NCBI GenBank assembly: GCA_964505525.1
Contig: CAZDIQ010000001.1
Span: forward strand, 5,544-69,543
Length of the DNA: 64,000 nucleotides
Origin: an uncultured Acidimicrobiaceae bacterium
GTDB lineage: Bacteria > Actinomycetota > Acidimicrobiia > Spongiisociales > UBA5794
Direction: 5' to 3'
Shown here: in pieces, positions 3,257 to 44,979 of the stretch
Numbering within the stretch: the stretch's first letter is position 1
Layout: each line of letters starts with the position of its first letter
Notes under the pieces: model-generated
Database searches by the model: none
Seen by the model: the letters and a program-made list of their open reading frames with translations, nothing else
What the model was told of the DNA's origin: nothing
Program-made: the position numbers and the translations under genes

Positions 3257-3990
3257 GAATCCAGTGTACGAGAACGACCGACACGGAACCGGCGCATCCT
3301 CAGCTGCACCTTCGGTGCCCCCTGCCGTTCGGTCAGATTGTCGATGATGTCCTGGAACACCGGCTTCTTCACGTAGGCACCCTCACGCCGATAGTTGACG
3401 TCGTCGATCTGCACGAACCGGTCCAGCTTCAAGAACGACTCCCGCTCCGACTTGTCCCAGTCACCCGAACCGATCGACGGTCGGTCACCGTCACGCCCAG
3501 CCTTCGACGTCAACTGCACACCGACCAGGTTCTTGCCGTCCTTCGTCCGTCCGATGATCAGCACCGGACGGTCCTTCGACTGGCGCGGGTCCTCCTCGAA
3601 CGGCACCCTGGCCCACACGATCTCGCCGGGGTCGGCGTGACCGTCCGGGTGGCGCGGCCGGTACGCGATCCGAACGTCCTCGAACGGGACATCCGGAAGA
3701 ACACCAGCCGGACGCGTCGGACCGCCAGGCGGCGGCGGGATACGACGACCAGGCGGCGGCGGGATCGGACGACCGGAACCGCCCGGCCCACGAGTCCAGC
3801 GGCCATCCGAGTCGCGTGGCACATCAGCCGACCCGGCAGCGACCAAAGCCTCCTCGACCGGCGGATAGACGTACGGGTCGAAGTCCGGGTCGTCGTCAAC
3901 GATGTCCGCCCACCACTCGATCACCGTCGACGCGGCACCGTCGCTGACGATCTCCAACTCGGTGTCAGCCATCCGCGCTTGCGTACTCAT
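3253..3990 (-). CDS. MazF/PemK (Kid)-like mRNA-interferase toxin domain protein with N-terminal 'VPRD..GRW' motif and Pro-rich linker
   Basis: C-terminal 'GEIVWARVPFEEDPRQSKDRPVLIIGRTKDGKNLVGVQLTSKAG' aligns to the Kid/PemK core 'GEIWLVSLDPTAGHEQQGTRPVLIVTP...VVPVTSGG'. N-terminal ~110 aa contain 'ADVPRDSDGRWTRG' and 'RPIPPPPGRRIPPPPGG'. ATGA overlap with upstream MuF gene. Confidence 0.55.
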   Translation of the reverse strand: MSTQARMADTELEIVSDGAASTVIEWWADIVDDDPDFDPYVYPPVEEALVAAGSADVPRDSDGRWTRGPGGSGRPIPPPPGRRIPPPPGGPTRPAGVLPDVPFEDVRIAYRPRHPDGHADPGEIVWARVPFEEDPRQSKDRPVLIIGRTKDGKNLVGVQLTSKAGRDGDRPSIGSGDWDKSERESFLKLDRFVQIDDVNYRREGAYVKKPVFQDIIDNLTERQGAPKVQLRMRRFRVGRSRTLDS

Positions 3991-8228: not shown

Positions 8229-10312
8229 ACTCCGACAGGAGCGAGGACAGCCTGCTCGACGATCCCCGCGACCATTGCCTGCGGGACGCGCAGCCCGTTG
8301 ACCGGACGGATATCACGCAACAGGTTGTCTTCGGCGTACTGCTGCATGTCCTCGGCCAGCCGGAACGCTGCGAACGATGCCCGGTCAGCAGCGTCGCGCG
8401 GTTCGAACCCGACTCCTTCCAGATAGTCGGACATCCAGGCCCGAGTCTGAATGGACAGTTCATCCCACGCGTCCTTCAACAGCACCTTCGGCGTCAGGGA
8501 GAACTCGGTCAACTCGCCAGCGGTGACCATCGACATGACCTGCGTCGCACGGACGTGCTTCACCCGGTCACGCAGGATCGGGTTCTTCGTCTTCGCCAGA
8601 TTCACGATCCGGTTCCCGGCGCGTTCCATCGCCCGGCCGAGAGCGGCGTCAGCGGCAGTCGTCAACCGTTCAACCATCATCGACGCGACCACAGCCTCAT
8701 CAACGTTCGCCGGTTCCTCCGAACCGGTAGCAGGCACAGTCTCATCGGGTGCCACCGGATCGTTCTCCGTCGTCTCGTTGTCGAGCGGGGTGCCGACCTG
8801 GCCGATCTGCTCCGCGTCGACGTCCTCCATGCCAGAGATCAACGGCAGCAACTTCGCGTACACCGCTGGCTGCGTCGACACCAGCTGCCACAGACGACGC
8901 TGACGGATCGTGTCCTTCGACGCCAGGTCGGCCTTGCTGAACCCGTTGGCCGTGAGAATCGCCTCGTCCGACAGCCAGTCAGCAAGGTCACGGGCCGACT
9001 TCGCTTCGTCATTCCGGGCGATGACCGGCGACGGATCAAACTCAACCTTGAACCCGGCGGCCTCCTCCTCAGACATGCCCTCGAACGCCATCAGCATCGG
9101 ACGCAGATACGAGTTCGTGATGAAGTCGGCGATCAGCTGCCCGATCGGCTGGATGTGCTTGACGATGAACTCGGCGTCGATGTTCGCTGCGGTCCAATGA
9201 TTCGCCGTCGACTTGCCGGACACGATCTCCGGAGGGGCGTCCAAGCCTGCCGCCAACCGGCCGAGCGCCTCTTGACGGAGCGACTGCAACGACAAGGCAT
9301 CCAGGTCGCGGGCCAGCACGATGATCTCAATCCCGGAGCCGCCCTCGCGGCGTGGCCCGGTGATCGCCAACGGCATTACCCGTGACGCCGACGTCGGGTC
9401 GAGCAGCGGGGCCGTCATGTGTTCGAACAGTTCGTCGACGAAGTCCGGTTCGCCGTCCTCGACGTCAGGGTCCGAGTCGTCGAGCGGCGTCGCGCCCATC
9501 ACCTGCAAGTCGTCCGGGATGTAGATGAGGTTCGCCGGGATACGCGACTTAGCGATGGCGTCGACCACCTGTGTGAGCGTGACGATCTCCTGCAAGATGG
9601 GCAGAACCCGGCGAACCTCAGAGTCAGCCAGATCCGAGTAACGCGGCGACGACCGCCAGATACGAGCCGTGTACGACTCGTCGTCCATCGGGACGGCCTC
9701 TGTGAAGTTCGCCCGCTTCCGCATCAACTTGCCTTCGGCGTCAACGTAGACCTCGTCGACCGACAGGAACTCCCACACCAAGTCCTGGTTCTCGTCGTTC
9801 GTGCCGCACAGATGCGCCTCACCCGTGCAGTACAAGTTCCAGGCGCAGCGGCGCACAAGGTCTTCCATGCCGCCCTGCGGGCCGACGAACGCCCGCATCA
9901 CGTTCGACGGCCGGTCGTCGTAGTCGTCGTCGGTTTCGTCCTTGTCGTCGATGGCCGGGTCGTTCGCCAGCCAGCTGGCCTGTTCCTTCGACCACTTCCG
10001 GACCGGGAACGAGCACAACGACACAGTGTTCGCCTGCAAGTTCAGCACCGCCCCGAGTTCCCCGACCTCGATCGCGAAGTCCATCGACTTCTGCTGCCAC
10101 GTCCGGTCGGTCTTCGACATGAGCCGACGCCGCGAACGGATGACCCGATCCTCGTCGCTGATCTTGCGGAGCGCCGACGACGACACTTTCGGGTTCCGGG
10201 ACGGTTGCTGCATCGCGAACTCGACCGGCTTCGTGGAGAACAGACGCTTCTTGCCCTCATCCAACGACACAGGCTTCTTCGGTTGACGCGCCATCGGCGT
10301 CACGCTACTCAA
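8225..10312 (-). CDS. portal protein
   Basis: 695-aa acidic protein directly upstream of the MuF gene; size, position and composition typical of portal proteins. No motif-level proof. Confidence 0.5.
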   Translation of the reverse strand: MSSVTPMARQPKKPVSLDEGKKRLFSTKPVEFAMQQPSRNPKVSSSALRKISDEDRVIRSRRRLMSKTDRTWQQKSMDFAIEVGELGAVLNLQANTVSLCSFPVRKWSKEQASWLANDPAIDDKDETDDDYDDRPSNVMRAFVGPQGGMEDLVRRCAWNLYCTGEAHLCGTNDENQDLVWEFLSVDEVYVDAEGKLMRKRANFTEAVPMDDESYTARIWRSSPRYSDLADSEVRRVLPILQEIVTLTQVVDAIAKSRIPANLIYIPDDLQVMGATPLDDSDPDVEDGEPDFVDELFEHMTAPLLDPTSASRVMPLAITGPRREGGSGIEIIVLARDLDALSLQSLRQEALGRLAAGLDAPPEIVSGKSTANHWTAANIDAEFIVKHIQPIGQLIADFITNSYLRPMLMAFEGMSEEEAAGFKVEFDPSPVIARNDEAKSARDLADWLSDEAILTANGFSKADLASKDTIRQRRLWQLVSTQPAVYAKLLPLISGMEDVDAEQIGQVGTPLDNETTENDPVAPDETVPATGSEEPANVDEAVVASMMVERLTTAADAALGRAMERAGNRIVNLAKTKNPILRDRVKHVRATQVMSMVTAGELTEFSLTPKVLLKDAWDELSIQTRAWMSDYLEGVGFEPRDAADRASFAAFRLAEDMQQYAEDNLLRDIRPVNGLRVPQAMVAGIVEQAVLAPVGV

Positions 10313-11820: not shown

Positions 11821-11859
11821 GGTGCTCCCTCCATCGGCCCGGCAATGTAGCACATCATG

Positions 11860-13935
11860 TCACGCCTCTCCGCCCAATGCTCGTTTCAGCAGACGGGCAA
11901 ACACTTCGCCGTAGGTCGACGTCGCAGCGATCTTCGCCTTGTCGCCGTCCGTGACAAACCGCATCTCCGCACGTTTCGTCGCCAGGACATCCATCCGGAT
12001 CTCGTCGATCGTGTCGACGCACACCAGATAGTGAGCGGCGATCGGATGCGGGTCGTTCATCCGCCACGCCGCCCGAGCATCAGCCTGATCGTGCTGGCCC
12101 GGTGTCCAGCACAGCTGCGCGTGCAGCACATTGTGCGCCTCAGTCAATGTGAGCCCCTCGCCCGCGGCGTCGATCTGTAGGACGATCGCCTGCAACGGCT
12201 CCAAGCCTTCGACGCCCTGGAACCGGTCGACGATCACGTCCCGGTCAGCGCGCTTCACCGACCCAGCGATGCGCGGTATCGGCGGGTCGACCGCCGTCGT
12301 CAACGCGTCGATCATGTCGATGTTCTCGGCGAACACCAGCAGCTTCTCCCCCGAGTCGAGGAAGTCGGCCGTCCATTCCTTCGCCGCGTGGATCTTCGCC
12401 TGCCCAGCCAACCGGCACAAGGTGTTCACCAGCATCAGCTGCGCCGCTGACCCCGCCTTCATCGCCGCGGCGACCGCCGCCGACTCCGGGTCCTGACCGA
12501 GTTCGATCGCCTTCTCGCGGGCCTTCGCCACGAGGAACTCCAGGAAGTTCTCCTCCGCCGCCCGATACTCGGCCAGCACAGCCGGGTCACCGTCGACGTA
12601 AGTGACCTGCGGGACGATCTCCGAAGTCCCGTCCTCGTTCAACACGCCGAGAGCCTTCAACACTTCGTCCGGGTCGGGACGCCAAGCGCACACCGTCCGC
12701 AACCGGCGCGACAGACGTTCGTCGGCGCGCAGCTGCTTCTTCGTTCCGAACTGGCCGCCCCGACCGATGATCGTCAACTGCGGGTGAACCTCATCCCGCT
12801 TGTTCCGGACCGGTGTCCCCGTCAACAGGTAACGGGGGGAGGCCATCGGCATCGACGCCGACACCGCCGCGACACCCTTCGTGCGACGGGTCCGCAGATT
12901 GATACAGCGATGACCCTCGTCGACGATCAACGACTTCACGCCGAGCGCTATGAACTGGTTCGACCAGGACGAGTCGCGGTCAGGGTCCCCGATGATGTCG
13001 TAGTTGCAGACCCAGTAGTCGGCCAGACGGTCGCCGAGCAGTTCCTTCGCCCGGCCGAGCCGATCCGCCTTGATCCCCTCACACACAACCGACGACCGGT
13101 GCGGGGTGATCGCCTTGATCTCGCGCGTCCAGTTCGTCTTCAACCCGGACGGTGGCACCACCAGACATGGGAACACGTCCTCACCCTGCGAGGCCAACTG
13201 TTCGAGAGCGGCGATCGCTACGGTCGTCTTGCCTGCGCCCATCGTGGCCCACGAGAAACACTGCCGCGCCGTGGCGAGATACTCGACACCGGGATGTTGG
13301 AACGGGCGAAGCTCGCGGACGACCTTGTCGGTCAGCAGCCAACCCTCCGAAGGTTCCAACGCCCGCGACAAGGCCAGCATCCGTTCGGCTTCCTCGATCG
13401 CCCGCGTCAGGTTCGACGCGTTCCCGACGAACTGCACCCTCGCTAGGACGCGCAGGTCGAGAACGACATCAGTGGCGTTCTCGTTCGGGATGAACCAACG
13501 GCCTGTCGCCATCTCCTGACGGCCGTCAGCCTTCTCCAACATCTGCCAGACGTCCTTACGGAACGGTCCCTCGACGATCAGTTGATCGCCCTCTGCTGAC
13601 ACCCGGTAAGGGAACTCGTCGGGTGACAGTTCAGGGATGGCCTTCACCGCTTGCGAGAGAACCCAGCCGTGTATGTGGGCCAGGTGGCGGATCTGTTGAA
13701 CGTTGCCGATGTGGATGGCCCACCGGTTCGCTTCCCGGTCGTATCGGTAGCCGGGGATCGACTTGATCGCCGTGATGTAGCCGTGGTGCTTCTCGGAGAA
13801 CTTGACGAACAACCACTGGCCGTCGCGGGTCACCACTCCGGCAACCCGGCGAGATCCGGTCTTCGTCGGCGCGGCGCGGCGCGTCGTACCGCCGCGTCGT
13901 GGAGTGCTGAACGGGAGAGCCTGACGGTTGTTCAT
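11860..13935 (-). CDS. SNF2-family DNA helicase
   Basis: Motifs 'GAGKT' (I), 'DEGH' (II), 'LTGTPVRN' (III) and C-terminal helicase motifs. Start moved to internal ATG (MNNRQ...) because the upstream 100 aa are Arg-rich overlap with the preceding gene. Confidence 0.75.
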   Translation of the reverse strand: MNNRQALPFSTPRRGGTTRRAAPTKTGSRRVAGVVTRDGQWLFVKFSEKHHGYITAIKSIPGYRYDREANRWAIHIGNVQQIRHLAHIHGWVLSQAVKAIPELSPDEFPYRVSAEGDQLIVEGPFRKDVWQMLEKADGRQEMATGRWFIPNENATDVVLDLRVLARVQFVGNASNLTRAIEEAERMLALSRALEPSEGWLLTDKVVRELRPFQHPGVEYLATARQCFSWATMGAGKTTVAIAALEQLASQGEDVFPCLVVPPSGLKTNWTREIKAITPHRSSVVCEGIKADRLGRAKELLGDRLADYWVCNYDIIGDPDRDSSWSNQFIALGVKSLIVDEGHRCINLRTRRTKGVAAVSASMPMASPRYLLTGTPVRNKRDEVHPQLTIIGRGGQFGTKKQLRADERLSRRLRTVCAWRPDPDEVLKALGVLNEDGTSEIVPQVTYVDGDPAVLAEYRAAEENFLEFLVAKAREKAIELGQDPESAAVAAAMKAGSAAQLMLVNTLCRLAGQAKIHAAKEWTADFLDSGEKLLVFAENIDMIDALTTAVDPPIPRIAGSVKRADRDVIVDRFQGVEGLEPLQAIVLQIDAAGEGLTLTEAHNVLHAQLCWTPGQHDQADARAAWRMNDPHPIAAHYLVCVDTIDEIRMDVLATKRAEMRFVTDGDKAKIAATSTYGEVFARLLKRALGGEA

Positions 13936-13954
13936 CGCAAGCGACGAGCGTAGG

Positions 13955-14698
13955 TCATCGTGCGACAGATTCGCAGAGTTCGATGGGGACGAGCAACGGG
14001 CCACTGCCAGTGTCCGGTTCGTTGCCCCAGCCTCGCGAACGGACGTCCACGGCGACGCCGATCCGTTCGCCTTCGTACATGATCCTGCCGACCGCTGGTC
14101 GTGGCTGCATCGCTCCCAACTGACCGTGGTCGGTGCCGTGCGGGGTCCGCCACCGGACCAGGCCGACGTCGTCAGCTTCGACGGTGGCGTGGCCGAGTTC
14201 GACCATCTCCGCGATCGACGCGTACTGGGCGTACATCCAGGCATCCTCGGCGTGGCGTTCGGCGGCGAGCTTCATGCCGTTCGAGGTCCGGTATTGGGAC
14301 TGGTCGTCACGGTCGTAGAACCCGAACTTGCCGTCGAACGCTGCCGGGTGCTGCTCGGCAAGTTCCGTCGCTGTGGTGACGGCCCAGGCATGTACCTTCG
14401 TGCGGACAGATTCCGATGCATCCTCGTAGCCGCAGTGACTGTCGTTCAGGCGACGGACCGCGCCGTACGACGAGACGTGCCATCCTCGTTCGCTGTCGAC
14501 CACGGTCAGCGAAGCGATGTCGTGGACGATGCCGTTCACTTCGATCGTGTGGCCGAGCCCGAACCGGTAGCCTCCGAACCGGACAGAACGTGTGAGCGCC
14601 GAGGTCAGGGCGTAGGCGACCGGCAGTGCGCCGAGCATCCGGTTGCCGACGACAAGGACTTCGGTCGGGGCGATGTCGCCCGCCAGCAGGACGTTCAT
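13955..14698 (-). CDS. hypothetical protein (247 aa)
   Basis: Clean ORF in operon, ATGA-coupled to neighbours; no recognisable motif. Confidence 0.4.
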   Translation of the reverse strand: MNVLLAGDIAPTEVLVVGNRMLGALPVAYALTSALTRSVRFGGYRFGLGHTIEVNGIVHDIASLTVVDSERGWHVSSYGAVRRLNDSHCGYEDASESVRTKVHAWAVTTATELAEQHPAAFDGKFGFYDRDDQSQYRTSNGMKLAAERHAEDAWMYAQYASIAEMVELGHATVEADDVGLVRWRTPHGTDHGQLGAMQPRPAVGRIMYEGERIGVAVDVRSRGWGNEPDTGSGPLLVPIELCESVAR

Positions 14699-14925
14699 TG
14701 TGGTTGCTCCATCAGGTCGGTTCGGTGGACGCGGGCTTCGTGGAACGTGACGTCACCGTCGCCGGTTGACGACGTCGCGCCGACCGAGCCGGTCACCGAA
14801 GCGGTGAGCGCAGCGGAACGGGCTTCGGCCAGGCAGTCGAGGCAGTCGTCGTGGAGCCAGGAGACGACCGTCCAGTAGTCCGGTTCAGTGCCGTCGTCGT
14901 TGTATTTGCCGATGCCGAACGTCAT
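14698..14925 (-). CDS. hypothetical small protein (about 76 aa)
   Basis: In-frame real-looking C-terminal part of track ORF 14695..15465; start ATG overlaps stop of upstream gene (ATGA). Confidence 0.35.
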
Positions 14926-16340
14926 GCTGCAACTCGATTCTTGCGTGTCCAGGCGGCCTTGCGGCCAGCGGTCCAGGTGTCGAAGTCGGCGGGCTTCTCG
15001 CCAGCGACGGTGACCGGAGCGGTCACGGCGACGGTGTGCTCCGGGCAGTGCGGCGTGTATCCCTTCGTGTCGGCGGTGGCGTACACGTCGTTGCGACAGC
15101 CCGACTGTTCGCACTGGTGAGCGACGAACGGGATCAGGTTCCCGTCGGCGTCGACCGGGGCCAGCTTGACCAGCTTGCATTCGGTCTGCTTGCCCCACTT
15201 CGGGTCGTCGATGTGGTTCTTCACCTTGCCGGTCCAACGGACCCGGTCGCCGACCCTGACGCCCCACAGGTCGTTGCCTGAACCGAACGTCGTGACGACG
15301 CCTTCGTCGGTCTGGACCGTGACCCGCTTCGAGGCGCCGTACGCCGTTTCGACGGTCAGTTCCACGATCACTTCGCCGATGACGACGATCTTCTCGCCGA
15401 CCTGGCCGATGAAGTTCTGGGGCCGTTCGGCCTTCGTCTCGGCCTCCTCGGTGTCCTTCCGCCACACGAACGGCAGAGCAGCCAGCAGGCCCGTCATGCG
15501 ACGGGAAACCTTCCCGGCGCTCAATGCCAGTTTGGCGTTGTAGATGAAGTCGCTGTCGTTCGCCGACTTCGTTTCCAGCCAGGCGACGACCTGATCGGCG
15601 TCGGCCCGACCGGCCGAGAGGTCGAAGCCATGAAACACTTCCGCCATCCGCTTCGCGGTCGTGCCGTAAGCGATCTCATCGGCCCGGTCACGGGTCGGCC
15701 AACCCTCGCTGGTCTTCGTGAAACCGTGGATGCGGGTCACCGCGGCGGCGATCGCGAGGTACTCCATCGGAAGAACGACGGGCTTCGCATGCCCCTGGAA
15801 GTCGTCGTCGTCGAAGAACCCGACGACCGCTTCACGGAGCCACAGGACGTTGGCCGGGTCGACACCGAGGAACTCCAACACGCAGGTCGTGCCGACAGCG
15901 AGCCACCGTTCGTCGTCGTGGCGGAACACGATCGTCGTGTTCCGTTTGACGTTGATCCCGCAGTGATCGCACAGCGAACCACGGAACCGGAACTCGTCCG
16001 GCAGGGCGATCTCGTCGGTGATCGCGCCGGGAAACAAGGCGACCCAGGCTTCACCGTCGACCAGAGTGTGGTCCAGGACGGCGATCGGAGCCCATCCGGC
16101 GTGGCGGGCTTCGAAGCCGTGGACGGTGACCTCGTCGTACTCGGTCCAGGTGCGCTTGATCCCGGTGACTTCGTCGTGTTCCTCGACGGTGACGATCTCG
16201 CCGAAGGTGACGGTGGCGGCCGGGGCGCCCAGTTTGGCGAGCCGCTTGTTCATCTTGACCAGCTTCTCGTTCACCTTCGCCGTGGCATCCGTGCGGATGC
16301 CGCGGACGGTGTGATCCACGGGGAACAGTTCAATCGTCAT
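14922..16340 (-). CDS. hypothetical protein (about 473 aa), Cys cluster, C-terminal 'TWTAGRKAAWTRKNRVAA' motif
   Basis: Long clean ORF preceded by conserved leader copy A (SD GAGAGGAAG). 'CDHCGINV...TTCVLEF' Cys motif. C-terminus shares the PGQKAA-TKK motif family. Confidence 0.5.
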   Translation of the reverse strand: MTIELFPVDHTVRGIRTDATAKVNEKLVKMNKRLAKLGAPAATVTFGEIVTVEEHDEVTGIKRTWTEYDEVTVHGFEARHAGWAPIAVLDHTLVDGEAWVALFPGAITDEIALPDEFRFRGSLCDHCGINVKRNTTIVFRHDDERWLAVGTTCVLEFLGVDPANVLWLREAVVGFFDDDDFQGHAKPVVLPMEYLAIAAAVTRIHGFTKTSEGWPTRDRADEIAYGTTAKRMAEVFHGFDLSAGRADADQVVAWLETKSANDSDFIYNAKLALSAGKVSRRMTGLLAALPFVWRKDTEEAETKAERPQNFIGQVGEKIVVIGEVIVELTVETAYGASKRVTVQTDEGVVTTFGSGNDLWGVRVGDRVRWTGKVKNHIDDPKWGKQTECKLVKLAPVDADGNLIPFVAHQCEQSGCRNDVYATADTKGYTPHCPEHTVAVTAPVTVAGEKPADFDTWTAGRKAAWTRKNRVAA

Positions 16341-16346
16341 GGGCAC

Positions 16347-16407
16347 TTCCTCTCTCGATCCGACAAAGTAAGTGTACCACGATCTGCTACAGAACGCAAC
16401 GGTCGGG
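16347..16407 (-). promoter_or_regulatory. conserved promoter/leader module copy A
   Basis: About 80% identical over 55 bp to 19680..19740; contains GTAcCA-N5-TGCTAC and SD GAGAGGAAG. Confidence 0.55.
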
Positions 16408-16783: not shown

Positions 16784-17839
16784 TCAGTTCGGGCACCGGA
16801 CAGGCATCTGCAACAGAGTCCAGCCGGGGGCAGAGGGGTGGATCAGGACGGGCTTCAACTCGTCGAACACGGTGACCGTCACCGTGTCAGCGTCAGCCTC
16901 GGCCAGTACCTGACGGAGCAGTTTCGGGTTCAACGACACGGTCGGAACCTCCCGGTCAGTCTCAACGGGGATACCGGACTTCGATCCGGCGACGTCGCGC
17001 ATCGTGACCACCAGTTCGTCGTCAACGACAACGAACCTGGCCGACGCCCCTCCGGCCAGTTCCAGCTTGCCGAGACGGGCAGCGAGTTGACGACGGTCGA
17101 CCGTGAACGACGAACCGTACCCGGTCGGGATCAAGGCCTGCCAACTCGGGAACTCGCCGATCGTCTGACGGACCACAACAGACGTCGTGGCGTTGAAGAA
17201 GTGCACGGTGTCATTCGTTGCGAAGTCGACGTTCAGGTCGTCCCCGTCGAACATGGCGGCCACGATCTGGACACCGTCGCTGGGCAGCAGGACCGGCCTG
17301 CCGAAGTCGACGACATCGTCAACAACCATCAGACGGTACGAGTCCGTCGCGACCGCACGACCGGCGTCGAACAGCACCGACGTCAAGACAGCACGAGTCG
17401 GGTCAATCGACGCGGCCGTCGCGGCGAGACGGGCAGCCCGAGCGAACCCGGTCGAATCGACCTCAATGGGATCGTTCCGGTCCGGGATGACATACACCGG
17501 GTTCTCCATGAACGACAGCGAGTATTCCAAGTCGCCTGCGACCATGACGACCTCGTCGGACGTCACGTCGAGCGAGACACGTCCGGCGTGAGCCATCGCC
17601 CTCGCGAACCGCTTCAACAGCCCGGCGTCGACTGTGATCGTCGTCGCCTTCTTCCCGGCGACCGGGATCTTCGCCGACGCGGTCGTCATGTAGTCGGTCG
17701 CCGTGACCGTAACCCGTTGGTCACGGAACGCGAGAGTGATCGAACCGGCAGACGCCCTGCCGACAAGTGTCACCGCCTTAGCGAACGCGGTTGCGTCGGT
17801 AGTGAACGTGGCCGTCTTCACGGCGAGAGAAGTAGACAT
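16784..17839 (-). CDS. dnaN: DNA polymerase III beta sliding clamp (DnaN) homolog
   Basis: 'DSYRLMVV', 'FPSWQALIP', 'LNPKLLRQVL', 'KPVLIHP' correspond to conserved DnaN blocks. Start set at ATG (MSTSLAV) with AAAGGA SD. Confidence 0.65.
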   Translation of the reverse strand: MSTSLAVKTATFTTDATAFAKAVTLVGRASAGSITLAFRDQRVTVTATDYMTTASAKIPVAGKKATTITVDAGLLKRFARAMAHAGRVSLDVTSDEVVMVAGDLEYSLSFMENPVYVIPDRNDPIEVDSTGFARAARLAATAASIDPTRAVLTSVLFDAGRAVATDSYRLMVVDDVVDFGRPVLLPSDGVQIVAAMFDGDDLNVDFATNDTVHFFNATTSVVVRQTIGEFPSWQALIPTGYGSSFTVDRRQLAARLGKLELAGGASARFVVVDDELVVTMRDVAGSKSGIPVETDREVPTVSLNPKLLRQVLAEADADTVTVTVFDELKPVLIHPSAPGWTLLQMPVRCPN

Positions 17840-17853
17840 GGGTTGGGGTCCTT

Positions 17854-18657
17854 TCATTGCATGGATTGAGCTTCGGTGAGAAGCGGACCGTCGTAACCGA
17901 GTTCGGTCAACGTGTCCGACATTCTTCGAGTGAGATCGAGCAGCGCCGCAACGGATCGCTTCTGTCCGGTCATGGCTTTCGCCTTGTCGATCCACGGTTC
18001 AGGTTGCAACGCGAACCCGAACTGCATCTCGGCAGACTTGGCCTGTTCGGCGGCGATCTCGTCGACCAGTTTCCGGAAACGGACGGCCCCCATCCGAGGG
18101 TTCGCCAGCCACGCTTTCAAGCCGACCGACTGGTGGGCCGAGTCGAGTCGACGTAGCTCCAACGCTGCGGCAGGAGTGACCGCCTCAGCGTCGATCGCGG
18201 CTTGAACGTCGGAACCGAGTTCGAGCAGGTCGAGTCGCCACCGGACACGGAACTCGGCGACCCCCGCGATCGCAGCGATCTGTTCGACGGTCTGCCCGGC
18301 GTCGCGTCGTTTGCCGTAGGCGCGGGCTTCCTCCATGATCGACAAGTTCACGCGGCCGGTGTTCTCGGCGAGCATCAAATCGGCCTCGGCCTGTTCGTCG
18401 ACGTCGCGGATCGTCGCTTCGATCGTTACCCGGCCGAGCAGCTGATAGGCGCGCCAGCGGCGTTCCCCGGCGATCAGCCGGAAGCGGCCGTCGTCGAGTG
18501 GGCGCACCGCGATCGGTTCGGCGAGTCCGACCGCGGCGATCGACGCGGCCAACTGTTCGAGTTCGGCCAGGTCGAACACCTTCCGGTCGTTCGTGCCGGT
18601 GACGATCTGGTCGACCGGGATCGTGTCGACGTTCACTGGACGGTCACCATTCGGCAC
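17854..18657 (-). CDS. parB: ParB-like partition/nuclease-domain protein
   Basis: 'FRLIAGERRWRA' matches the ParB-N GERRxRA box, plus 'NLSIMEEARAY' in an HTH region. Confidence 0.6.
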   Translation of the reverse strand: MPNGDRPVNVDTIPVDQIVTGTNDRKVFDLAELEQLAASIAAVGLAEPIAVRPLDDGRFRLIAGERRWRAYQLLGRVTIEATIRDVDEQAEADLMLAENTGRVNLSIMEEARAYGKRRDAGQTVEQIAAIAGVAEFRVRWRLDLLELGSDVQAAIDAEAVTPAAALELRRLDSAHQSVGLKAWLANPRMGAVRFRKLVDEIAAEQAKSAEMQFGFALQPEPWIDKAKAMTGQKRSVAALLDLTRRMSDTLTELGYDGPLLTEAQSMQ

Positions 18658-19054: not shown

Positions 19055-19332
19055 TTGTCGATGGTCACACGGGCCAGGTTCTCGGCGTCGAGGCCGTACC
19101 CGCCGTGACCGGCCTCGGCGAGAACGGACGTCTTCGCACCGCGGGTCTTGCTGATGCGGACGGCGTACTCGTCCGACGGGAGGAGTTCGACGAACAGGTG
19201 GGCTGTCGCGTGGGCGAAGCCCATCTTGAAGCGGACGGTGTTGGCGTCGACAATCGTCGCCTCACGCAGTCCGAGTTCCATGAACGTCCGGATGCCCAGC
19301 TGGGCTTGAAGTTGGGCGTAGTCGATGCTCAT
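19021..19332 (-). CDS. hypothetical protein
   Basis: ORF in operon. Confidence 0.35.
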   Translation of the reverse strand: MSIDYAQLQAQLGIRTFMELGLREATIVDANTVRFKMGFAHATAHLFVELLPSDEYAVRISKTRGAKTSVLAEAGHGGYGLDAENLARVTIDKWVAVCDQKGW

Positions 19333-19673
19333 GCTGCGGCCCGCAGCTTCTTCGTGAGGGCGGCCTTCTGACCGGGGGTCAGTCCTTCGTACAGGTTGCT
19401 GACGTCCTCCTGGACGGCGACGAGACGCAGATTGACACCGACGGTGATCCGGTCGTCGTTCCGGAACGAGCGGGTCTTCTCGCGGCCGGGCTGCCCGCCG
19501 AACACGGTGAGTTCGGTGCCGCCGTGACGGGCGTACCGGAACTTGAATGGGAACTGTTCGCCGTCGACGTTGATCAACGCTCCGAGGGTCATCAGGTCAC
19601 CGGTCGTGGTGCTGGCGGTGGCCTCGTGGCCGAGGTTGACCTTCCCCATCTTGCGACTGGTTATTGCGGTCAT
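19329..19673 (-). CDS. hypothetical protein ending in 'LTPGQKAALTKKLRAAA'
   Basis: First gene after conserved leader copy B (SD GAAGGAG 7 nt from ATG); C-terminal shared motif. Confidence 0.5.
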   Translation of the reverse strand: MTAITSRKMGKVNLGHEATASTTTGDLMTLGALINVDGEQFPFKFRYARHGGTELTVFGGQPGREKTRSFRNDDRITVGVNLRLVAVQEDVSNLYEGLTPGQKAALTKKLRAAA

Positions 19674-19679
19674 CTGCAC

Positions 19680-19740
19680 TCCTTCTCTCTCGATCCGACA
19701 AGTTCAGTGTAGCAGGTCATGCTACGTAACGCAAATCGTG
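19680..19740 (-). promoter_or_regulatory. conserved promoter/leader module copy B
   Basis: Contains perfect GTAGCA-ggtca-TGCTAC (19709..19725) and SD GAAGGAG. Confidence 0.55.
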
Positions 19741-19822
19741 ATGCGAGAGAGCCCGCCCGGCCTGCCGGGTACAAACCGGCAACCGGACGGGCTCGACTCC
19801 CAGCGGACTGGGAGGAAGTTGC

Positions 19823-19858
19823 CTCCGGGGCGGTAGCGGGCGGACGCCACCCCGGAGG
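19823..19858 (-). terminator. GC-rich stem-loop (9-bp stem CCTCCGGGG/CCCCGGAGG), likely terminator of gene 19866..20135
   Basis: Perfect 9-bp inverted repeat 8 nt downstream (minus sense) of the stop codon; no U-tract, as is common in actinobacteria. Confidence 0.45.
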
Positions 19859-19865
19859 CGATCTG

Positions 19866-20135
19866 TCAGACGGACTTCCGTCGACGTGCAGCCACCGTAG
19901 CCGCGGCCCCGACACCGAGCACCAACGCCCCGGCCAGAGAGACGATCCGGGTCGCGTCAGAACCCGACGTCGCCAACTCGGCGGGAACGGTCGTCGGGGG
20001 AACAGTCGTGGTCGACACGGACGTCGCCGGGCATTCCGGGGACGGAACGTACGACTCGCAGTCGGCAGCAGAAACCGTCGGGGCCGCGACGAACGTGGCC
20101 ACCGCGGTGAGCAGGATCAGGATGCGGTCCATCAC
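19866..20135 (-). CDS. small secreted protein with sortase-type (LAxTG-like) C-terminal sorting signal
   Basis: N-terminal signal peptide 'ILILLTAVATFVAAPTVSA'; Thr/Pro-rich middle; C-terminal 'LATSG' + hydrophobic stretch + 'RRRKSV'. Confidence 0.45.
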   Translation of the reverse strand: MMDRILILLTAVATFVAAPTVSAADCESYVPSPECPATSVSTTTVPPTTVPAELATSGSDATRIVSLAGALVLGVGAAATVAARRRKSV

Positions 20136-20968: not shown

Positions 20969-20998
20969 GGACCAAGTGTAGCACCACGGGCGACAGCA

Positions 20999-24516: not shown

Positions 24517-24604
24517 GTCTCCTTCGTCGGATTCCGGTCGGACGACAGGACCGTAGCACGAGTTGCGACATGTAGCATCCGGTGCTGCTACCGTCGCGTC
24601 GGTC
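24517..24604. promoter_or_regulatory. divergent promoter region between clamp-like operon and terS/terL with two GTAGCA palindromic sites
   Basis: GTAGCA-cgagt-TGCGAC (24553..24569) and GTAGCA-N8-TGCTAC (24572..24591). Confidence 0.5.
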
Positions 24605-25216
24605 ATGGCGAACAGGAAACGGAAGACGAAGGCGGAGCTTCAAGCCGAGGCCAAAGCCGCCGAGCAGGAACGGGTCGTGGTCTGGGCCGAACAGTTCGGG
24701 GCACCGATCGCGATTCTGCAAGGCTGGAACATCGACGACGGGACATGGCATCCTCAGTCACCGGTCGGGCTCATGTTGCAGGCCATCGCCTCACGAGGGG
24801 CGCATATCACGACCGCCGCACAACTCGGAGGGCTGCGGAACATCATGCAGCTGATCGCCCGTGGTCACGAGTACATGGTCGACGCCGCCGAAGACCGGGC
24901 CTACATCCCGATCGACGTGCGTGTGTTCGTCGACCTGGTCGTTCAGATTGAGCAGGCCGAAGCGTTGATCGAAGTCGAACTCGTGAAGACGGTCCGGGAC
25001 GGGGCGAAGACCGACCCGAAGATCGCGTTGGCGATGCTGTCGCGACGGTTCGGTCAACGCTGGCGTGAACAGCAGGCCATCTTCACCGCCGACGAACACG
25101 ACGAACGTGACGCCGCCGTGTCGAAGGTGCTCGCGAACCCGGACGCGGCGTTGGCGCTCGCCGAGATCGCCCACGAAGTCGAAGACACGGTGCAGGAGCA
25201 CGAACGCGGTAGCTGA
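24605..25216 (+). CDS. terS: terminase small subunit (putative)
   Basis: Basic N-terminus 'MANRKRKTKAEL', about 200 aa, stop overlaps terL start (TGATG). Confidence 0.5.
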   Translation: MANRKRKTKAELQAEAKAAEQERVVVWAEQFGAPIAILQGWNIDDGTWHPQSPVGLMLQAIASRGAHITTAAQLGGLRNIMQLIARGHEYMVDAAEDRAYIPIDVRVFVDLVVQIEQAEALIEVELVKTVRDGAKTDPKIALAMLSRRFGQRWREQQAIFTADEHDERDAAVSKVLANPDAALALAEIAHEVEDTVQEHERGS

Positions 25217-26742
25217 TGCGTACCCACGACCTGGCCTCACGGGCGTGGAAGGCAATGCCCGACACGATGGGCCGCCGACTGTCCGACGGCACCTACACGG
25301 CACCGGAGCACGTCAAGCTCATCTCATGGCTGCTGACGTTGAACGCGAACCGGTACGTCCCGCGGCTCGGGATCTCGATGCCTCCGGGTTCAGGGAAGTC
25401 GGAGGTCATCGACTACTACGACTCGATCCACCTGTTGGAACACGACCCGCGACGAAGGATCATTCTCGCCTCCTACTCCGGTGAACTGGCCGAGGAACAA
25501 GGCAAACGGGTCCGCAACACGATCGAGTCGAACTATGACCTGCTCAACCTCCGGCTCATGCAAGACAGCCGGGCCGCTGACCGGTGGCGTACCACGATGG
25601 GCGGCGGGATGTGGACCGTCGGCATCGGCGGTTCGATCACCGGTCGCCGCGCGTCGAACTTGAAGATCGACGACCCGCACAAGAACTTCGCCGAAGCCAT
25701 GTCGATCAAGAACCAGGTCGACACCTGGAACTGGTACGGGTCCGTGGCCCGCACCCGCATGCTGCCCCGCTCGTCGCTGGCAGTCGTCCAAACCCGGTGG
25801 GCTGAGGGTGACCTGATCGGCCGGTTGAAGTCGAACGACGAAGGCAAAGACGACTGGCTGTTCGTGTCGCTCCCGGCGATCGCCGAGAAAGACGAGACGA
25901 TCGTCACCGTCCTCGGCGACTGGTATTACAAGCTCACCGCGATGGGCGTCACCCGGTTCCCGGTATGGGAACGGGAGAAAGGTCAAGCCCTGTGGCCCGA
26001 GTTGGAACCGGGGGTGCCGTGGTTCGACGAAACGGAGTACGCCGAGATCCGCGCCGACGTCGGCGAAGTCGTCTGGGCTGGGCTGTACCAGCAACGCCCG
26101 TCGCCCGCCGAGGGCAACCTGTTCAAACGATACGACTGGCGGCGTCTCGACGGGCCGATGCCAGCAGGCACCTACACGTACGTTCGGCGTTGGGACTTGG
26201 CGTCAGTCGAAGGGGGCGGTGACTGGACGGCCGGGATGCTCATGGCGATCAATCACGAGACACGGCACATCTACATCATCGACGCCCGCCGTGCCCGGCT
26301 CGGCCCGACCGAAGTCGAAGCGTTCGTGCACATGACCGCTGTGGAGGACCGCGACAACTACGGCACCGTTCTCACCCGCGTTGAACGCGAACCGGGATCG
26401 TCCGGCAAGAACGTCGAGACGAACTACATGGCGAACGTCCTCGCCGGGTTCCCCGCCAAGTTCCTGCCGTCAACCGGAGCGAAGGAGGTTCGAGCCCTGC
26501 CGTTGTCCGGTCAGGTAGGTGCCCGCAACGTGTACCTGTGCCGACGGGTCCGAGCGAACGGGGAGACGACGATCCCGGACTGGTGGGAGTGGCTGATCGA
26601 GGAAGCGGCCGTGTTCCCGAACGGCACACACGACGACCTCATCGACGTCGCCTCACTCGCCTACGTCGATCTGATCGAGGAACAACCGCGCCGGTCACGG
26701 ACGAAGGTCGGGTCGTCGGCCCGCAAGCAACTCGGGTTCTGA
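25216..26742 (+). CDS. terL: terminase large subunit
   Basis: Walker A 'GISMPPGSGKS', Walker B 'LKIDDPH', 'LYQQRP', C-terminal nuclease 'THDDLIDVASLA'. Confidence 0.9.
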   Translation: MRTHDLASRAWKAMPDTMGRRLSDGTYTAPEHVKLISWLLTLNANRYVPRLGISMPPGSGKSEVIDYYDSIHLLEHDPRRRIILASYSGELAEEQGKRVRNTIESNYDLLNLRLMQDSRAADRWRTTMGGGMWTVGIGGSITGRRASNLKIDDPHKNFAEAMSIKNQVDTWNWYGSVARTRMLPRSSLAVVQTRWAEGDLIGRLKSNDEGKDDWLFVSLPAIAEKDETIVTVLGDWYYKLTAMGVTRFPVWEREKGQALWPELEPGVPWFDETEYAEIRADVGEVVWAGLYQQRPSPAEGNLFKRYDWRRLDGPMPAGTYTYVRRWDLASVEGGGDWTAGMLMAINHETRHIYIIDARRARLGPTEVEAFVHMTAVEDRDNYGTVLTRVEREPGSSGKNVETNYMANVLAGFPAKFLPSTGAKEVRALPLSGQVGARNVYLCRRVRANGETTIPDWWEWLIEEAAVFPNGTHDDLIDVASLAYVDLIEEQPRRSRTKVGSSARKQLGF

Positions 26743-27096: not shown

Positions 27097-27167
27097 TGTG
27101 CACCCCCTCAGAATCCATGTCGTTCACCATGCTACATGCGGTAGCGGTTCATGGCAATGGGGATTCG

Positions 27168-27485
27168 TCAGTACGACCAGCCGGGCTTGTCGACCACGTC
27201 CGCCCACGCCCGCGCGCCGTGGCGTTGACCGGCGCCGAGGCCGAGGATGCGGGAACAGTCCACGCAGCGCCGGTCGATCGGTGGAGGCCACGTCGCGGTG
27301 ATCGACATGTCCGGCTGCCCGGCGATGTCCCACAGCAACGGGAACGCGTCGGAGCCGCACACGGTGCGCTGCTCGCGGCGCGACCTGTCCCAGTCGATCG
27401 GTGGCCGCAGCGACGCGTGGATCGTCGTATGGGACGTCAACGCCAGACACACATGGTCGTCGAGGATCGGAAACAACAGGCCCAT
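27168..27485 (-). CDS. hypothetical protein (105 aa)
   Basis: Low-Arg ORF coupled 3 nt after upstream gene. Confidence 0.3.
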   Translation of the reverse strand: MGLLFPILDDHVCLALTSHTTIHASLRPPIDWDRSRREQRTVCGSDAFPLLWDIAGQPDMSITATWPPPIDRRCVDCSRILGLGAGQRHGARAWADVVDKPGWSY

Positions 27486-27500
27486 GTTTCACGTGGCACA
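27485..27500. promoter_or_regulatory. parS-like site TGTTTCACGTGGCACA (14/16 to TGTTTCACGTGAAACA)
   Basis: Direct comparison to the canonical chromosomal parS. Confidence 0.4.
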
Positions 27501-27944
27501 TGAAGGGGCAGGGGGTGCCGACGGTGGGCTGGACGGTGGCGGCCAGTTCGACGGGCGACGCGGGGACCGCGGGTCGATCGCCCAACCCAACCATCCGGAC
27601 GTGACCCCCAACTCGTCTGGAGGGTCAAGGTTACGCAACGTCGGTTCGGCCAGGCCGTTGCCGTCATCGTCGATCTGCTGCACTTGGATCGTCACGGACC
27701 CGGACGCCCGCCACTCGTTGCGTTGCGTTGTGAACGGGACGCCGTGCTCGTCCTCGTTCAACGTGCCGATCGTGACGAGCGTCTCCTCCAACCCGAAGTC
27801 GAGCACCTTGTACCGGGACAAGCCGTAGACGAGATGATCTTCGCGCCACAGGTTCTCGAAGGTGACCTTGCCGTCGACGGACCGGAGCGGGATGTCGATG
27901 TGTGGCAGGTTCAATCGCTGTACACGGCGGGTCGGTTTAGCCAT
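27489..27944 (-). CDS. hypothetical protein (151 aa)
   Basis: ORF. Confidence 0.4.
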   Translation of the reverse strand: MAKPTRRVQRLNLPHIDIPLRSVDGKVTFENLWREDHLVYGLSRYKVLDFGLEETLVTIGTLNEDEHGVPFTTQRNEWRASGSVTIQVQQIDDDGNGLAEPTLRNLDPPDELGVTSGWLGWAIDPRSPRRPSNWPPPSSPPSAPPAPSCAT

Positions 27945-27971
27945 GATCGAAGCGTACGACCCGGCCCGACA

Positions 27972-28655: not shown

Positions 28656-28833
28656 CGCACCAGGACGCTACTTGACGTCGGAAGTGGAGTGTGGCCCGGC
28701 GCAACCCTGCGGTCACGCCGAGCCTCACTCGGCACTGGGTTCCGGCTCTGAAACTGAGCTTGTCGGATCAGAAGTCAGGAGCCGTAGGCCCAGTGACAAC
28801 AGTGTAGGCGTGGGGGCGACAGTGTCGTCAACG

Positions 28834-31906: not shown

Positions 31907-32004
31907 TCGTTCTCACGAGCTTCCGAGCATCGCGCGAGCCACGACGGGATGCAAGAACAACACACCTGTAGTTCACATGTCGCCATGACAGATACGGTTC
32001 CGAC

Positions 32005-33937: not shown

Positions 33938-34626
33938 GACAGCACAATGTGAATGTTGCGGCCGCAGCCGTCCGTGCCCGAAGGCGCCCACGTGACACCA
34001 GGCAGATACTCGCCGCCCGGCGCGACCTCACCAGTCTCCGTGTCGACCACAGGCGGCCGCCAGAACTGGCCGGACTCGAACTGGCCGAACGGCTTCCGCC
34101 ACGCAGCACCGGCCGGGATGACCACATGCTCACCGCTGGTCGACACGATCACCTGTTCCAACTCGCCGTCGGCGATCATCCGATCAAGTTTGGCCCGCAG
34201 CTTCTTCACGTCGACCTTCGGTTTCCACGACACGAGATCCGGGTCCAGATCCTCCCAGTAGTTCCCGGCCCGTTCGTCGTCGACGGTCAACACCGGTTTC
34301 GTCTGGTTCGACGAGATCGTCCCGTTCGGGGTACCAATCTTCGTCTTGTCGAAGTCGAGGAACGACCGGACCGCGTACTGTTCGACCGTCGACCGCAACC
34401 AATCCAACCGGCGCCGGGTCGGCCCCACGACTCGTTCCTTCTGCTCCGACAAGCGGGCCAGTTCGTTCTGATGCAGGATCTCGTACTCGGCGATCCGGTT
34501 CGTCAACCGGCGCATCGCCGCCAACATGCGCGACACCGTTTCCAGGTTCGCTTCGGATGCGTCAGGGATGGATGGTTCGGCGTCCGGGTCGTCCCAGTCG
34601 ACGTCGTCGAACAGTTCGTACGTCAT
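33934..34626 (-). CDS. hypothetical protein (230 aa)
   Basis: ORF, ATGA-coupled to Arr-like gene. Confidence 0.4.
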   Translation of the reverse strand: MTYELFDDVDWDDPDAEPSIPDASEANLETVSRMLAAMRRLTNRIAEYEILHQNELARLSEQKERVVGPTRRRLDWLRSTVEQYAVRSFLDFDKTKIGTPNGTISSNQTKPVLTVDDERAGNYWEDLDPDLVSWKPKVDVKKLRAKLDRMIADGELEQVIVSTSGEHVVIPAGAAWRKPFGQFESGQFWRPPVVDTETGEVAPGGEYLPGVTWAPSGTDGCGRNIHIVLS

Positions 34627-44949: not shown

Positions 44950-44979
44950 GCCGGGATCGTAGCATCGGCTGCGACAGTG

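Follow-up and report, generated by a model that had tools for sequence, protein, structure and literature searches.

The 64,000-nucleotide stretch considered here (contig CAZDIQ010000001.1, positions 5,544 to 69,543; "the window" hereafter means this whole stretch at its full length) is phage DNA of 64% G+C, and it raises a simple question: why are two of its minus-strand genes, encoding proteins of 114 and 472 amino acids (aa), preceded by nearly the same sequence? A first-pass annotation, made from the sequence alone, had interpreted the resemblance as a repeated, regulated promoter, i.e., an operator for a phage repressor or activator that controls a pair of operons. We consider it probable that the two regions are instead copies of a promoter-plus-leader cassette that is used at least six times in the phage genome and is read by the host's housekeeping sigma factor through an extended -10 element, and that also carries two extra recognition elements. 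The first of these lies in the spacer at about -26, and the second is a 10-nt tag at the predicted start of the transcript.

The Two Copies in the Window

The two stretches, at 16347-16399 and 19680-19734, are indeed about 80% identical, with agreement at 42 of 54 positions (78%) from the -35 hexamer to the Shine-Dalgarno (SD) sequence and at 37 of 45 (82%) from the -35 to +10. The limits of the similarity are the -35 and the ATG. Alignment of the flanks, 60 nt on the upstream side and the initial 60 nt of the genes, reaches only 62-67%, about the level that global alignment yields for these flank pairs, which show no further sign of kinship. The cassette is therefore not a fragment of some larger coding duplication, a possibility that the first-pass annotation had raised against its own proposal. 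A search of the window with the 24-position pattern TTGCGTTNNGTAGCANNNNNTGSTACACT, allowing up to three mismatches, returns exactly these two sites, against 0.00 in 100 dinucleotide shuffles, and the same two sites are recovered with the pattern CTTGTCGGATCGAGAGAG.

Read on the coding strand, the common layout is TTGCGT, 3 nt, GTAGCA, 5 nt, TG(C/G)TACACT, 6 nt, GTCGGATCGA, a purine-rich SD, and the ATG. Copy 2, upstream of the 114-aa gene (19674..19734, minus strand), reads from 19734 to 19674 as TTGCGT tac GTAGCA tgacc TGC TACACT gaactt GTCGGATCGA gagagaaggagtgcag, followed by the ATG at 19673. Its -35 hexamer occupies 19734-19729, the spacer element GTAGCA 19725-19720, the TGC 19714-19712, and the -10 hexamer TACACT 19711-19706; a 6-nt discriminator (19705-19700) then leads to the tag GTCGGATCGA (19699-19690), with a predicted +1 at G19699, and to the SD GAGAGAAGGAG (19689-19679). 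Copy 1, upstream of the 472-aa gene (16341..16399, minus strand), reads from 16399 to 16341 as TTGCGT tct GTAGCA gatcg TGG TACACT tacttt GTCGGATCGA gagaggaagtgccc, followed by the ATG at 16340. Here the -35 lies at 16399-16394, GTAGCA at 16390-16385, TGG at 16379-16377, TACACT at 16376-16371, the discriminator at 16370-16365, and the tag GTCGGATCGA at 16364-16355 (predicted +1 at G16364), ahead of the SD GAGAGGAAG. The purine-rich tracts that had been described before both ATGs are thus present, as are the 6-5-6 palindromes, which are perfect at 19709-19725 (GTAGCA-ggtca-TGCTAC) and carry one mismatch at 16374-16390. The longer gene had been given one codon too many (473 aa).

A Family of at Least Six Cassettes

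The search was extended beyond the window using a composite of 79,731 nt, assembled from the window and flanking DNA in public assemblies of the same phage (contigs L080 and L082), with both junctions checked; the same sequence occurs on public contigs of up to 100,320 bp. This whole-genome motif search, which the first-pass annotation had proposed as a check and which here covered 79.7 kb, revealed four further copies just outside the window, for a total of at least six complete cassettes. At L080:794-839, TTGACG tct GTCGCA tagcc TGC TACACT gttcctt GTCGGATCGA precedes a 120-aa gene and then Ku, and at L080:3055-3099, TTGACA tcc GTAGCA tgtcg TGA TACACT tacctt GTCGGATCGA precedes a 73-aa zinc-ribbon gene and then a ligase. 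The other two are TTGCGT tcc GTAGCA tgtcg TGG TACACT tatctt GTCGGATCGA at L082:9526-9570, before a 119-aa gene, and TTGCAA ccc GTAGCA tcacc TGC TACACT aaggga GTCGGATCAA at L082:11846-11890, before a DUF2786/DUF7168 gene.

All six copies share a -35 beginning with TTG, a 17-nt spacer, TGn, TACACT, 6 (once 7) nt, and GTCGGATC(G/A)A. The -35 hexamers, TTGACA, TTGACG, TTGCGT (three times), and TTGCAA, lie at 17 nt in every case. Each cassette is intergenic and faces its downstream gene, with 12-21 nt from the end of the tag to the start codon. The tag, GTCGGATCRA, is found six times in the composite, always on the gene strand and only in cassettes, where about 0.15 would be expected per strand; TGNTACACT is likewise distributed 7 to 0 between the strands. 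The nine occurrences of TACACT itself all fall on the gene strand and in a promoter-like context, with none on the opposite strand (shuffles give 3.5 +/- 1.8 per strand), a skew that hints at selection against stray copies. The proposal of a repeated promoter/leader module in front of operons therefore survives, with the module confined to intergenic DNA, whereas its description as a pair serving two operons does not, as there are at least six copies in this genome and others in related phages.

Conservation in Related Phages

Eighteen instances can be compared, six from this genome and 12 from metagenomic phages related to it, of which there are at least five. Invariant in all of them are the GT that begins the spacer element, the TG, the TA-CA-T of the -10, and GTCGGA, while the N3, N5, and N6 blocks vary. 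The -10 is TACACT in all six composite copies and TACACT or TACAAT in 18 of 18 across the phages, and it is directly preceded by TGC, TGG, or TGA in every instance.

Homologues of the 114-aa protein on metagenomic contigs are 51-61% identical to it, and the cassette precedes this DUF7246-like gene in L003, L004, L005/6, and L007-12/L073, with a second cassette before another gene in L005 and L008. A 71-kb contig from IMG/VR (L032, L043, L086) carries six copies of the form GTCGCAcaccgTG(G/A)TACACT...GTCGGATC, and one further contig (L070) carries a single copy. Such conservation in distant relatives shows that the cassette is under selection. Phages found through DUF5131 alone (L075-L079) lack it, so the cassette family is narrower than the distribution of DUF5131. 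No relatives of the 472-aa and 114-aa proteins were found in IMG/VR, and a metagenome scan gave two. An exact 17-mer match in IMG/VR (L001) looks like chance, as do most of the 60 matches from a loose-pattern scan of that database, which fall in low-G+C contigs; the high-G+C, TG-containing matches were kept. A literature search for the cassette sequences returned unrelated primers only.

Might the repeat have some function other than transcription? Multi-copy, dispersed elements in phage genomes could be ParB centromere sites, replication iterons, packaging signals, or a small mobile element copied recently, and this phage does encode two proteins with ParB-N domains, with copy 2 heading a ParB operon. 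We regard such an explanation as extremely improbable. Every copy is intergenic, gene-facing, and positioned 12-21 nt before a start codon; all of them lie on one strand (6 versus 0); and they possess neither terminal repeats nor target duplications. Their variable blocks show them to be old rather than recent transpositions, and their retention before orthologues at 51-61% protein identity indicates vertical inheritance. Finally, two scans of 185,579 bacterial genomes found no cassette, save for one match in a Paracoccaceae metagenome-assembled genome that looks like chance; an origin in a prophage or host genome was rejected on the same grounds.

Promoter Recognition and the Predicted Start Site

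In the mechanism that we favor, RNA polymerase carrying the host's housekeeping sigma factor would bind the -35 (TTGACA, TTGACG, TTGCGT, or TTGCAA) and, across the 17-nt spacer, the extended -10 (TGnTACACT), and would initiate at the G seven bases after the -10. A clade-specific transcription factor, encoded by phage or host, would contact the polymerase next to the -10 through GT(A/C)GC(A/C), and one factor would bind the tag, either as a protein on the start-site DNA or as a protein or RNA on the 5' end of the message. The product would be an operon mRNA with a short, unstructured leader beginning 5'-GUCGGAUC(G/A)A and continuing into a purine-rich SD. As the cassettes head operons for DNA metabolism (Ku, ligase, ParB/clamp, the 472-aa protein with the SNF2 helicase, and DUF2786), and this content is non-structural, they most likely represent an early or middle promoter class.

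The start site is predicted from a second class of promoters in the same genome (class ii, described below), which lack a -35 and are mostly leaderless. At four leaderless class ii sites in the window, the start codon falls exactly 6 nt after the -10 (20968, 44949, 32005, and 3256), a register that would place +1 of the cassettes at the seventh base after the -10, i.e., the G of GTCGGATC. Start codons 6 nt after TACNNT predict leaderless mRNAs. In Mycobacterium tuberculosis, start sites lie 7-12 bp downstream of TANNNT, most promoters lack a -35 motif, and extended -10 promoters with TGN are rare (7%) and the strongest (PMC3898074).

The cassettes thus resemble extended -10 promoters of the actinobacterial SigA/sigma-70 type and the early promoters of phages that use the host polymerase: they have TGnTAnnnT with a TTGACA-like -35 at 17 nt, near-identical copies head early-type operons, and leaderless relatives have start codons 6 nt past the -10. 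Promoters of the extended -10 class also tolerate the absence of a -35, as in the IMG/VR relative. When L080 1-9000 was scanned for generic sigma-70 promoters, exactly two sites emerged, and each is a cassette (TTGACA-17-TACACT, scoring 10/12 with TG, and TTGACG-17-TACACT, scoring 9/12 with TG). Unlike that class, the cassettes have an invariant TACACT rather than TANNNT, a fixed spacer element GT(A/C)GC(A/C), and a first ten transcribed bases conserved across divergent phages. Sigma requires none of these three features, the -26 element and the tag among them. A reading of the sites as sigma-54 or extracytoplasmic function (ECF)-type promoters was rejected on their spacing and because actinobacteria are not known to have sigma-54.

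Several points weigh against the involvement of the host's housekeeping sigma factor or temper the proposal as a whole. The two copies in the window fail the generic sigma-70 scan, with TTGCGT matching TTGACA at only three of six positions, and the six copies in the IMG/VR relative have no recognizable -35, which therefore lies outside the conserved core. The invariant TAC-A-C-T exceeds the TANNNT that sigma needs, and a dedicated phage factor could be at work besides the host sigma. That the host is an actinobacterium is suggested by the 64% G+C and by distant matches to phages of Mycobacterium, Gordonia, and Microbacterium. Moreover, what can be read off directly is how the elements are arranged, how many copies there are, on which strand and where with respect to genes they lie, and how well they are conserved; the start site, the sigma factor used, the timing, the promoter activity, and the readers of the two extra elements are predictions from sequence. 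Among about 45 phage proteins scanned, no candidate reader of the -26 element or the tag was found, Pfam and PHROGs giving no repressor, sigma factor, WYL protein, or polymerase; the analysis covers about 80 of about 100 kb, and a phage sigma factor, polymerase, or regulator could lie in the remaining 20 kb or so.

The cassette could also be a promoter for a phage-encoded sigma factor or RNA polymerase, which would recognize the block from GT(A/C)GCA to +10, its likeness to host promoters being partial or coincidental. We judge this to be very improbable. The conserved block does begin at about -26 and reach +10, TACACT and the initial transcribed sequence being invariant, and the promoters of T7-type phage polymerases, conserved through +6, have a similar look. 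The IMG/VR relative keeps the 20-nt block GTCGCACACCGTGGTACACT without a -35. Nevertheless, all six copies in the genome have a good -35 at exactly 17 nt together with TGn, as the host sigma requires; the N5 and N6 blocks vary freely within the genome, which is unlike the promoters of single-subunit polymerases; and no RNA polymerase or sigma domain was detected in the proteins scanned with Pfam or PHROGs.

Host-sigma promoters bearing phage-specific additions have well-known precedents. T4 middle promoters combine a MotA box at -30 with a sigma-70 -10, and lambda PR' has a Q-binding element in its spacer and a signal in its initial transcribed region. The cassettes are like both in pairing a host -10 with a phage-specific upstream or spacer element, and like PR' in the possible function of the initial transcribed sequence, but the sequences and positions differ, no homologue of AsiA, MotA, or Q was found, and the tag contains no pausing hexamer of the -10 type. 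T4, whose middle promoters exemplify sigma appropriation, is also mentioned in work on PafBC (PMC8635444).

The Palindrome and the -26 Element

The palindrome, which the first-pass annotation took as the mark of an operator, is made up of two separate elements. The extended -10 (TGC plus the TAC of TACACT) forms the right arm, and the left arm is an oriented element, GT(A/C)GC(A/C), located at about -26 to -21 and constantly 8 nt upstream of the -10; the apparent 6-5-6 symmetry arises because the -26 element resembles the reverse complement of TGC-TAC. The element lies at the same distance from the -10 in promoters that have no dyad symmetry. When all TGNTAYNNT sites were listed, those upstream of genes had GTnGC(A/C) five bases upstream, and one intragenic site did not. 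The broader pattern GT..C.-N5-NNN-TA[CT]..T gave 15 matches, compared with 4.2 +/- 2.0 in shuffles, and 13 of the 15 were on the gene strand. The -26 element appears to be an oriented element common to all promoters of this phage clade.

Could the symmetry nonetheless be what is recognized? A dimeric helix-turn-helix (HTH) repressor or activator of the Cro/CI kind might bind the 17-bp GTAGCA-N5-TGCTAC overlapping the -10 and switch the operons together. The window holds seven such dyads with up to two mismatches, against 0.51 expected, most of them at gene starts; two are 19 bp apart, measured between their centres, at 24553-24588, one of these displaced by 3 nt from the nearest -10; and 6-5-6 is a classic size for the operators of dimeric repressors. 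Even so, a dyad operator is unlikely. The right arm is always TG(C/G)TAC, while the left arm takes the forms GTAGCA, GTCGCA, GTCGCC, GTGACA, and GTCGGT, and there is a strong bias in orientation, with 13 of the 15 sites on the gene strand. In the 71-kb IMG/VR relative, GTCGCA is paired with TGGTAC, only 4/6 complementary, in all six copies, which indicates that the half-sites do not co-vary and that symmetry is not the conserved feature; across the relatives, GTCGCA, GTGCCT, or GTGTCG accompanies TGGTAC. Just one of the six composite cassettes is perfectly palindromic. No HTH repressor was detected among the candidates that had been put forward or the other small proteins tested: the roughly 45 proteins include no HTH_3/XRE-type match, the sole winged HTH being in a 361-aa protein beside DnaB, with many small open reading frames (ORFs) having no detectable family. 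Integrase and prophage copies were not found either. As evidence for an operator, then, the palindrome is poor, and the -26 element is more likely the site of a polymerase-proximal factor than half of a dimeric repressor's operator.

The dyads at 24553-24588, between divergent genes, are GTAGCA-cgagt-TGCGAC and GTAGCA-tccgg-TGCTGC; the latter (24572-24588) faces the terminase and is 3 nt out of register with the -10 TACCGT. In the gap adjoining 27097-27971 there is, in addition, an everted GCTAC-cgcat-GTAGCA. The region 27097-27971 itself has ambiguous gene calls, with a 193-aa plus-strand ORF competing with two minus-strand ORFs, all of high third-position G+C.

The -26 element unites two classes of promoters. 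Class i comprises the six cassettes, which precede the genes for Ku, ligase, ParB, clamp, helicase, and DUF2786. Class ii has no -35, is mostly leaderless, carries tGTCGC(A/C) or tGTCGGT, and precedes the operons of the major head protein, the tape measure, and the portal. Class ii sites have GTC in seven of eight cases, and in relatives as well, whereas the cassettes have GTA in five of six.

On the minus strand of the window, leaderless class ii sites are found at 20969..20994 (tGTCGCC-cgtgg-TGC-TACACT, then 6 nt and the DUF5131 ATG at 20968), at 44950..44975 (tGTCGCA-gccga-TGC-TACGAT, then 6 nt and the ATG at 44949, before the tape-measure/tail operon), and at 3257..3282 (tGTCGGT-cgttc-TCG-TACACT, then 6 nt and a GTG at 3256, behind which lie an 80-aa gene and a 985-aa Zeta-toxin-domain protein). 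A plus-strand example at 31979..32004 (tGTCGCC-atgac-AGA-TACGGT, 6 nt) leads into the first small plus-strand gene (ATG 32005), and at L080:6334 a further start codon is located 6 nt after the -10. Two minus-strand sites have leaders: GTGACA-tgatg-TGC-TACATT (11844..11863), before a 146-aa gene (ATG 11820) and the portal operon, and tGTCGCA-actcg-TGC-TACGGT (24550..24569), before a 351-aa gene (ATG 24516). The leaderless promoter in front of DUF5131 is kept in L003, L004, and L007/8, and similar sites exist in L086 and L070.

These sites recall the hybrid promoters of PafBC, whose motif, tGTCgg(N10)tA(N3)T, has its 5' part at -23 to -28, no -35, and a strictly conserved GTC (PMC8635444). PafBC sits between sigma region 4 and the DNA, an arrangement termed "sigma adaptation" that its authors suggest may be common in mycobacteria (PMC8635444). 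By analogy, a WYL activator, either the host's PafBC, which senses single-stranded DNA, or a phage counterpart, might recruit RNA polymerase and SigA to the -35-less promoters, timing the late genes and modulating the cassettes. Both systems have an oriented, non-palindromic tGTCG element at a fixed distance from a canonical -10, and class ii, without a -35, has tGTCGC(A/C), tGTCGGT, or tGTCGGC followed by TACNNT, with the preceding T in seven of seven. Several differences make this quite unlikely. All sites of this phage and its relatives are spaced more tightly by one base (a G-to-T offset of 14, against 15 in the PafBC consensus), and the fifth base is usually C rather than G; the GTA of five of the six cassettes removes one of the two guanines read by PafB; and sigma region 4 would be taken up by the -35 that the cassettes carry. 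The scan of the phage proteins gave no WYL domain, nothing ties the sites to DNA damage, and a literature search gave no paper linking PafBC to phage promoters. The PafBC element is the closest analogue of the -26 element, but the match fails on account of the shorter spacing, the GTA in most cassettes, and their -35.

The Tag at the Predicted 5' End of the Transcript

The most distinctive part of the module, missed in the first-pass annotation, is the 10-nt tag GTCGGATCRA at the predicted start of the transcript. Its distance from the -10 is fixed at 6 nt, occasionally 7, while the distance from its end to the ATG varies from 12 to 21 nt over the 18 instances (13-16 nt in this genome's six), so that the tag belongs with the promoter or the 5' end of the transcript and not with the geometry of the ribosome site. 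The predicted leaders are 22-31 nt long over all instances, 23-26 nt in this genome, and 24-26 nt in the two window copies, and the six tested all fold worse than shuffles (z = +0.7 to +1.9). The tag appears to mark transcripts or start sites for common control by one factor; it may be a DNA site at the start point, a 5' mark on the RNA, or an intrinsic effect of the initial transcribed sequence.

Other explanations for the leader or the tag were tried and rejected. A structured RNA, riboswitch, or known RNA family is at odds with the poorly folded leaders and with the lack of any transfer RNA or Rfam match: no family reaches its gathering score in the window, and 19600-19900 gives only chance-level hits (E >= 0.12). 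A methylation switch (Dam/GATC) is contradicted by an observed/expected ratio of 1.01 for GATC, and an extended pairing with the 3' tail of 16S rRNA was dismissed on geometric reasoning, as GAUC lies 5' of the SD.

Short, oriented repeats in phage intergenic regions have been seen before. The L5-type stoperators of temperate Cluster A mycobacteriophages are 13-bp repressor sites, GGTGGMTGTCAAG, that are asymmetric, oriented, intergenic, and independent of promoters. The tag is similar in being short, asymmetric, aligned with transcription, and repeated between genes; unlike a stoperator, it is always 6-7 nt from a -10, and no repressor, integrase, or prophage copy was found. Another precedent is provided by the SAS and ESAS of Cluster K mycobacteriophages, which are oriented, asymmetric repeats just upstream of many gene starts, sometimes found together with an imperfect 17-bp inverted repeat; they are conserved across sub-lineages before different gene families, and a host or phage RNA or protein has been suggested to bind them (PMC3203893). 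The tag shares with them its orientation, asymmetry, proximity to gene starts, and conservation across sub-lineages. However, the 13-mer SAS, GGGATAGGAGCCC, contains the SD, lies 3-8 nt before the start, and is absent here, whereas GTCGGATCRA is separate from the SD, at variable distance, and locked to the -10, with no similarity in sequence.

Two further sequences related to the tag were noted. Next to the terminase genes, the 351-aa gene has the complement of the tag, AAUCCGAC, in its leader (24526-24533, minus strand), and in the equivalent divergent region of the IMG/VR relative (L086 3660-3700) the tag sequence makes up a perfect inverted repeat of 12 bp, CGTCGGATCTCG...CGAGATCCGACG. Either may be due to chance or to tag-related regulation of the region.

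Elsewhere in the window, the tag region has a single extended match, on the opposite strand (28747-28769) and in a gap of 178-229 nt after dnaB. The minus strand of this gap has an orphan class ii promoter, tGTCGCC-cccac-GCC-TACACT, at 28820-28801, with no start codon at +1. The RNA that it would produce (promoter and RNA together span 28690-28820) is predicted to fold into two strong hairpins (z = -4.9). The first of these carries CUCCUGACUUCUGAUCCGAC, which is antisense to the tag, the SD, and whatever lies between them in the cassette leaders. For duplexes with the six leaders, the predicted energies are -23 to -30 kcal/mol, compared with -15 to -21 for shuffled RNA, and 0.3-2% of shuffles do as well. 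This RNA could be an anti-leader RNA, the remains of a cassette in reverse orientation, or another place at which a tag-binding protein attaches, and its link to the cassettes is speculative. It is tempting to imagine a phage-wide promoter code, in which the -26 element (tGTCGC/GTAGCA, 8 nt from the -10) would be read by an activator resembling those of sigma adaptation and would define all promoters of the clade, the 5' tag GUCGGAUCRA would label early mRNAs only, and a late antisense RNA from 28820, through its hairpin CUCCUGACUUCUGAUCCGAC, would silence them together; we consider a scheme of this breadth highly unlikely.

Genomic Context and the C-Terminal Peptide

The phage has no close relative among 50,697 deposited phages, and its portal (8225-10294) is 24-30% identical to those of Mycobacterium, Gordonia, Microbacterium, and Arthrobacter phages. 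The window also encodes a terminase (24605-26742, plus strand), a tape measure (39996-44060), an endolysin, an SNF2 helicase, DnaB, a sliding clamp, two ParB-N proteins, DUF5131, Mu-Gam, and large multi-domain proteins of virion type. The first gene behind copy 2 (19329..19673, minus strand) encodes the 114-aa protein, which has a weak match to DUF7246 and a conserved C-terminal LTPGQKAALTKRLRAAA. Its model, a confident one (pLDDT 88.7), shows a small SH3/KOW-like beta-barrel with two helices, and a search of the PDB gave no significant match, leaving the SH3/KOW-like barrel as the only class that can be named. Downstream in the same operon are a ParB-like protein (17854-18636) and the sliding clamp (16784-17839). 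Behind copy 1, the 472-aa protein (14922..16340, minus strand) belongs to phrog_2319, to which no function is assigned, and is followed by the SNF2-type helicase (11860-14244).

Between the stop of the upstream gene and copy 2 (19741..19860, minus strand) are three consecutive G+C-rich hairpins (minimum free energy -82.5 kcal/mol, z = -5.8), none with a U-tract, which probably form a terminator or insulator cluster at the operon boundary. The phage also carries what looks like a kit for protecting and joining DNA ends, consisting of Ku and an ATP-dependent DNA/RNA ligase-like protein (L080 1218-2042 and 3767-4573) and a Mu Gam-like protein (window 33934-34527); the Ku and ligase genes sit behind cassettes, in the L080 part that adjoins the high end of the window.

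The first genes behind copies 1 and 2 had also been linked through a shared C-terminal motif, PGQKAA-TKK. The motif is present, in a looser form than quoted (TPGQKAALTKKLRAAA versus TAGRKAAWTRKNRVAA). As (M/L/W)(T/S)(P/A/S)G(Q/R)KAAxT(K/R)(K/G), it occurs six times in four proteins: at the C-termini of the 114-aa and 472-aa proteins, in the 985-aa Zeta-toxin-domain protein, and three times in a 1408-aa MuF/HNH protein. It is strongly kept in homologues of the 114-aa protein, one of which has it in duplicate. Its association with the promoter module is coincidental, given that it is found in the two large virion-type proteins and is missing from the first genes behind the other four cassettes, which makes it independent of the DNA module; perhaps it is a shared interaction or targeting peptide. 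The DNA encoding it (about 800-880, 4666-4832, 5530-5603, 14925-14970, and 19332-19381, all minus strand) makes up the largest direct-repeat families in the window.

Conclusions

Repeated promoters are to be expected in phages, and the core finding is in that sense ordinary. The cassette is a new form of a known kind, and its novelty resides in the -26 element, which recurs in two promoter classes, and in the tag from +1 to +10. As a compact, probably strong, and portable promoter and leader, it may be of use in high-G+C hosts. For a phage with no close relative, the whole transcription plan is nonetheless legible from sequence, with a tagged, -35-containing class before DNA-metabolism operons and a -35-less class before virion genes. 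A conserved 10-nt mRNA start that is independent of the ribosome site is unusual for promoters of the host polymerase and offers a handle for finding a new regulator, be it protein or RNA. Finally, should a phage or host factor prove to read the -26 element, it would be a first phage example of such promoter recognition in actinobacteria.

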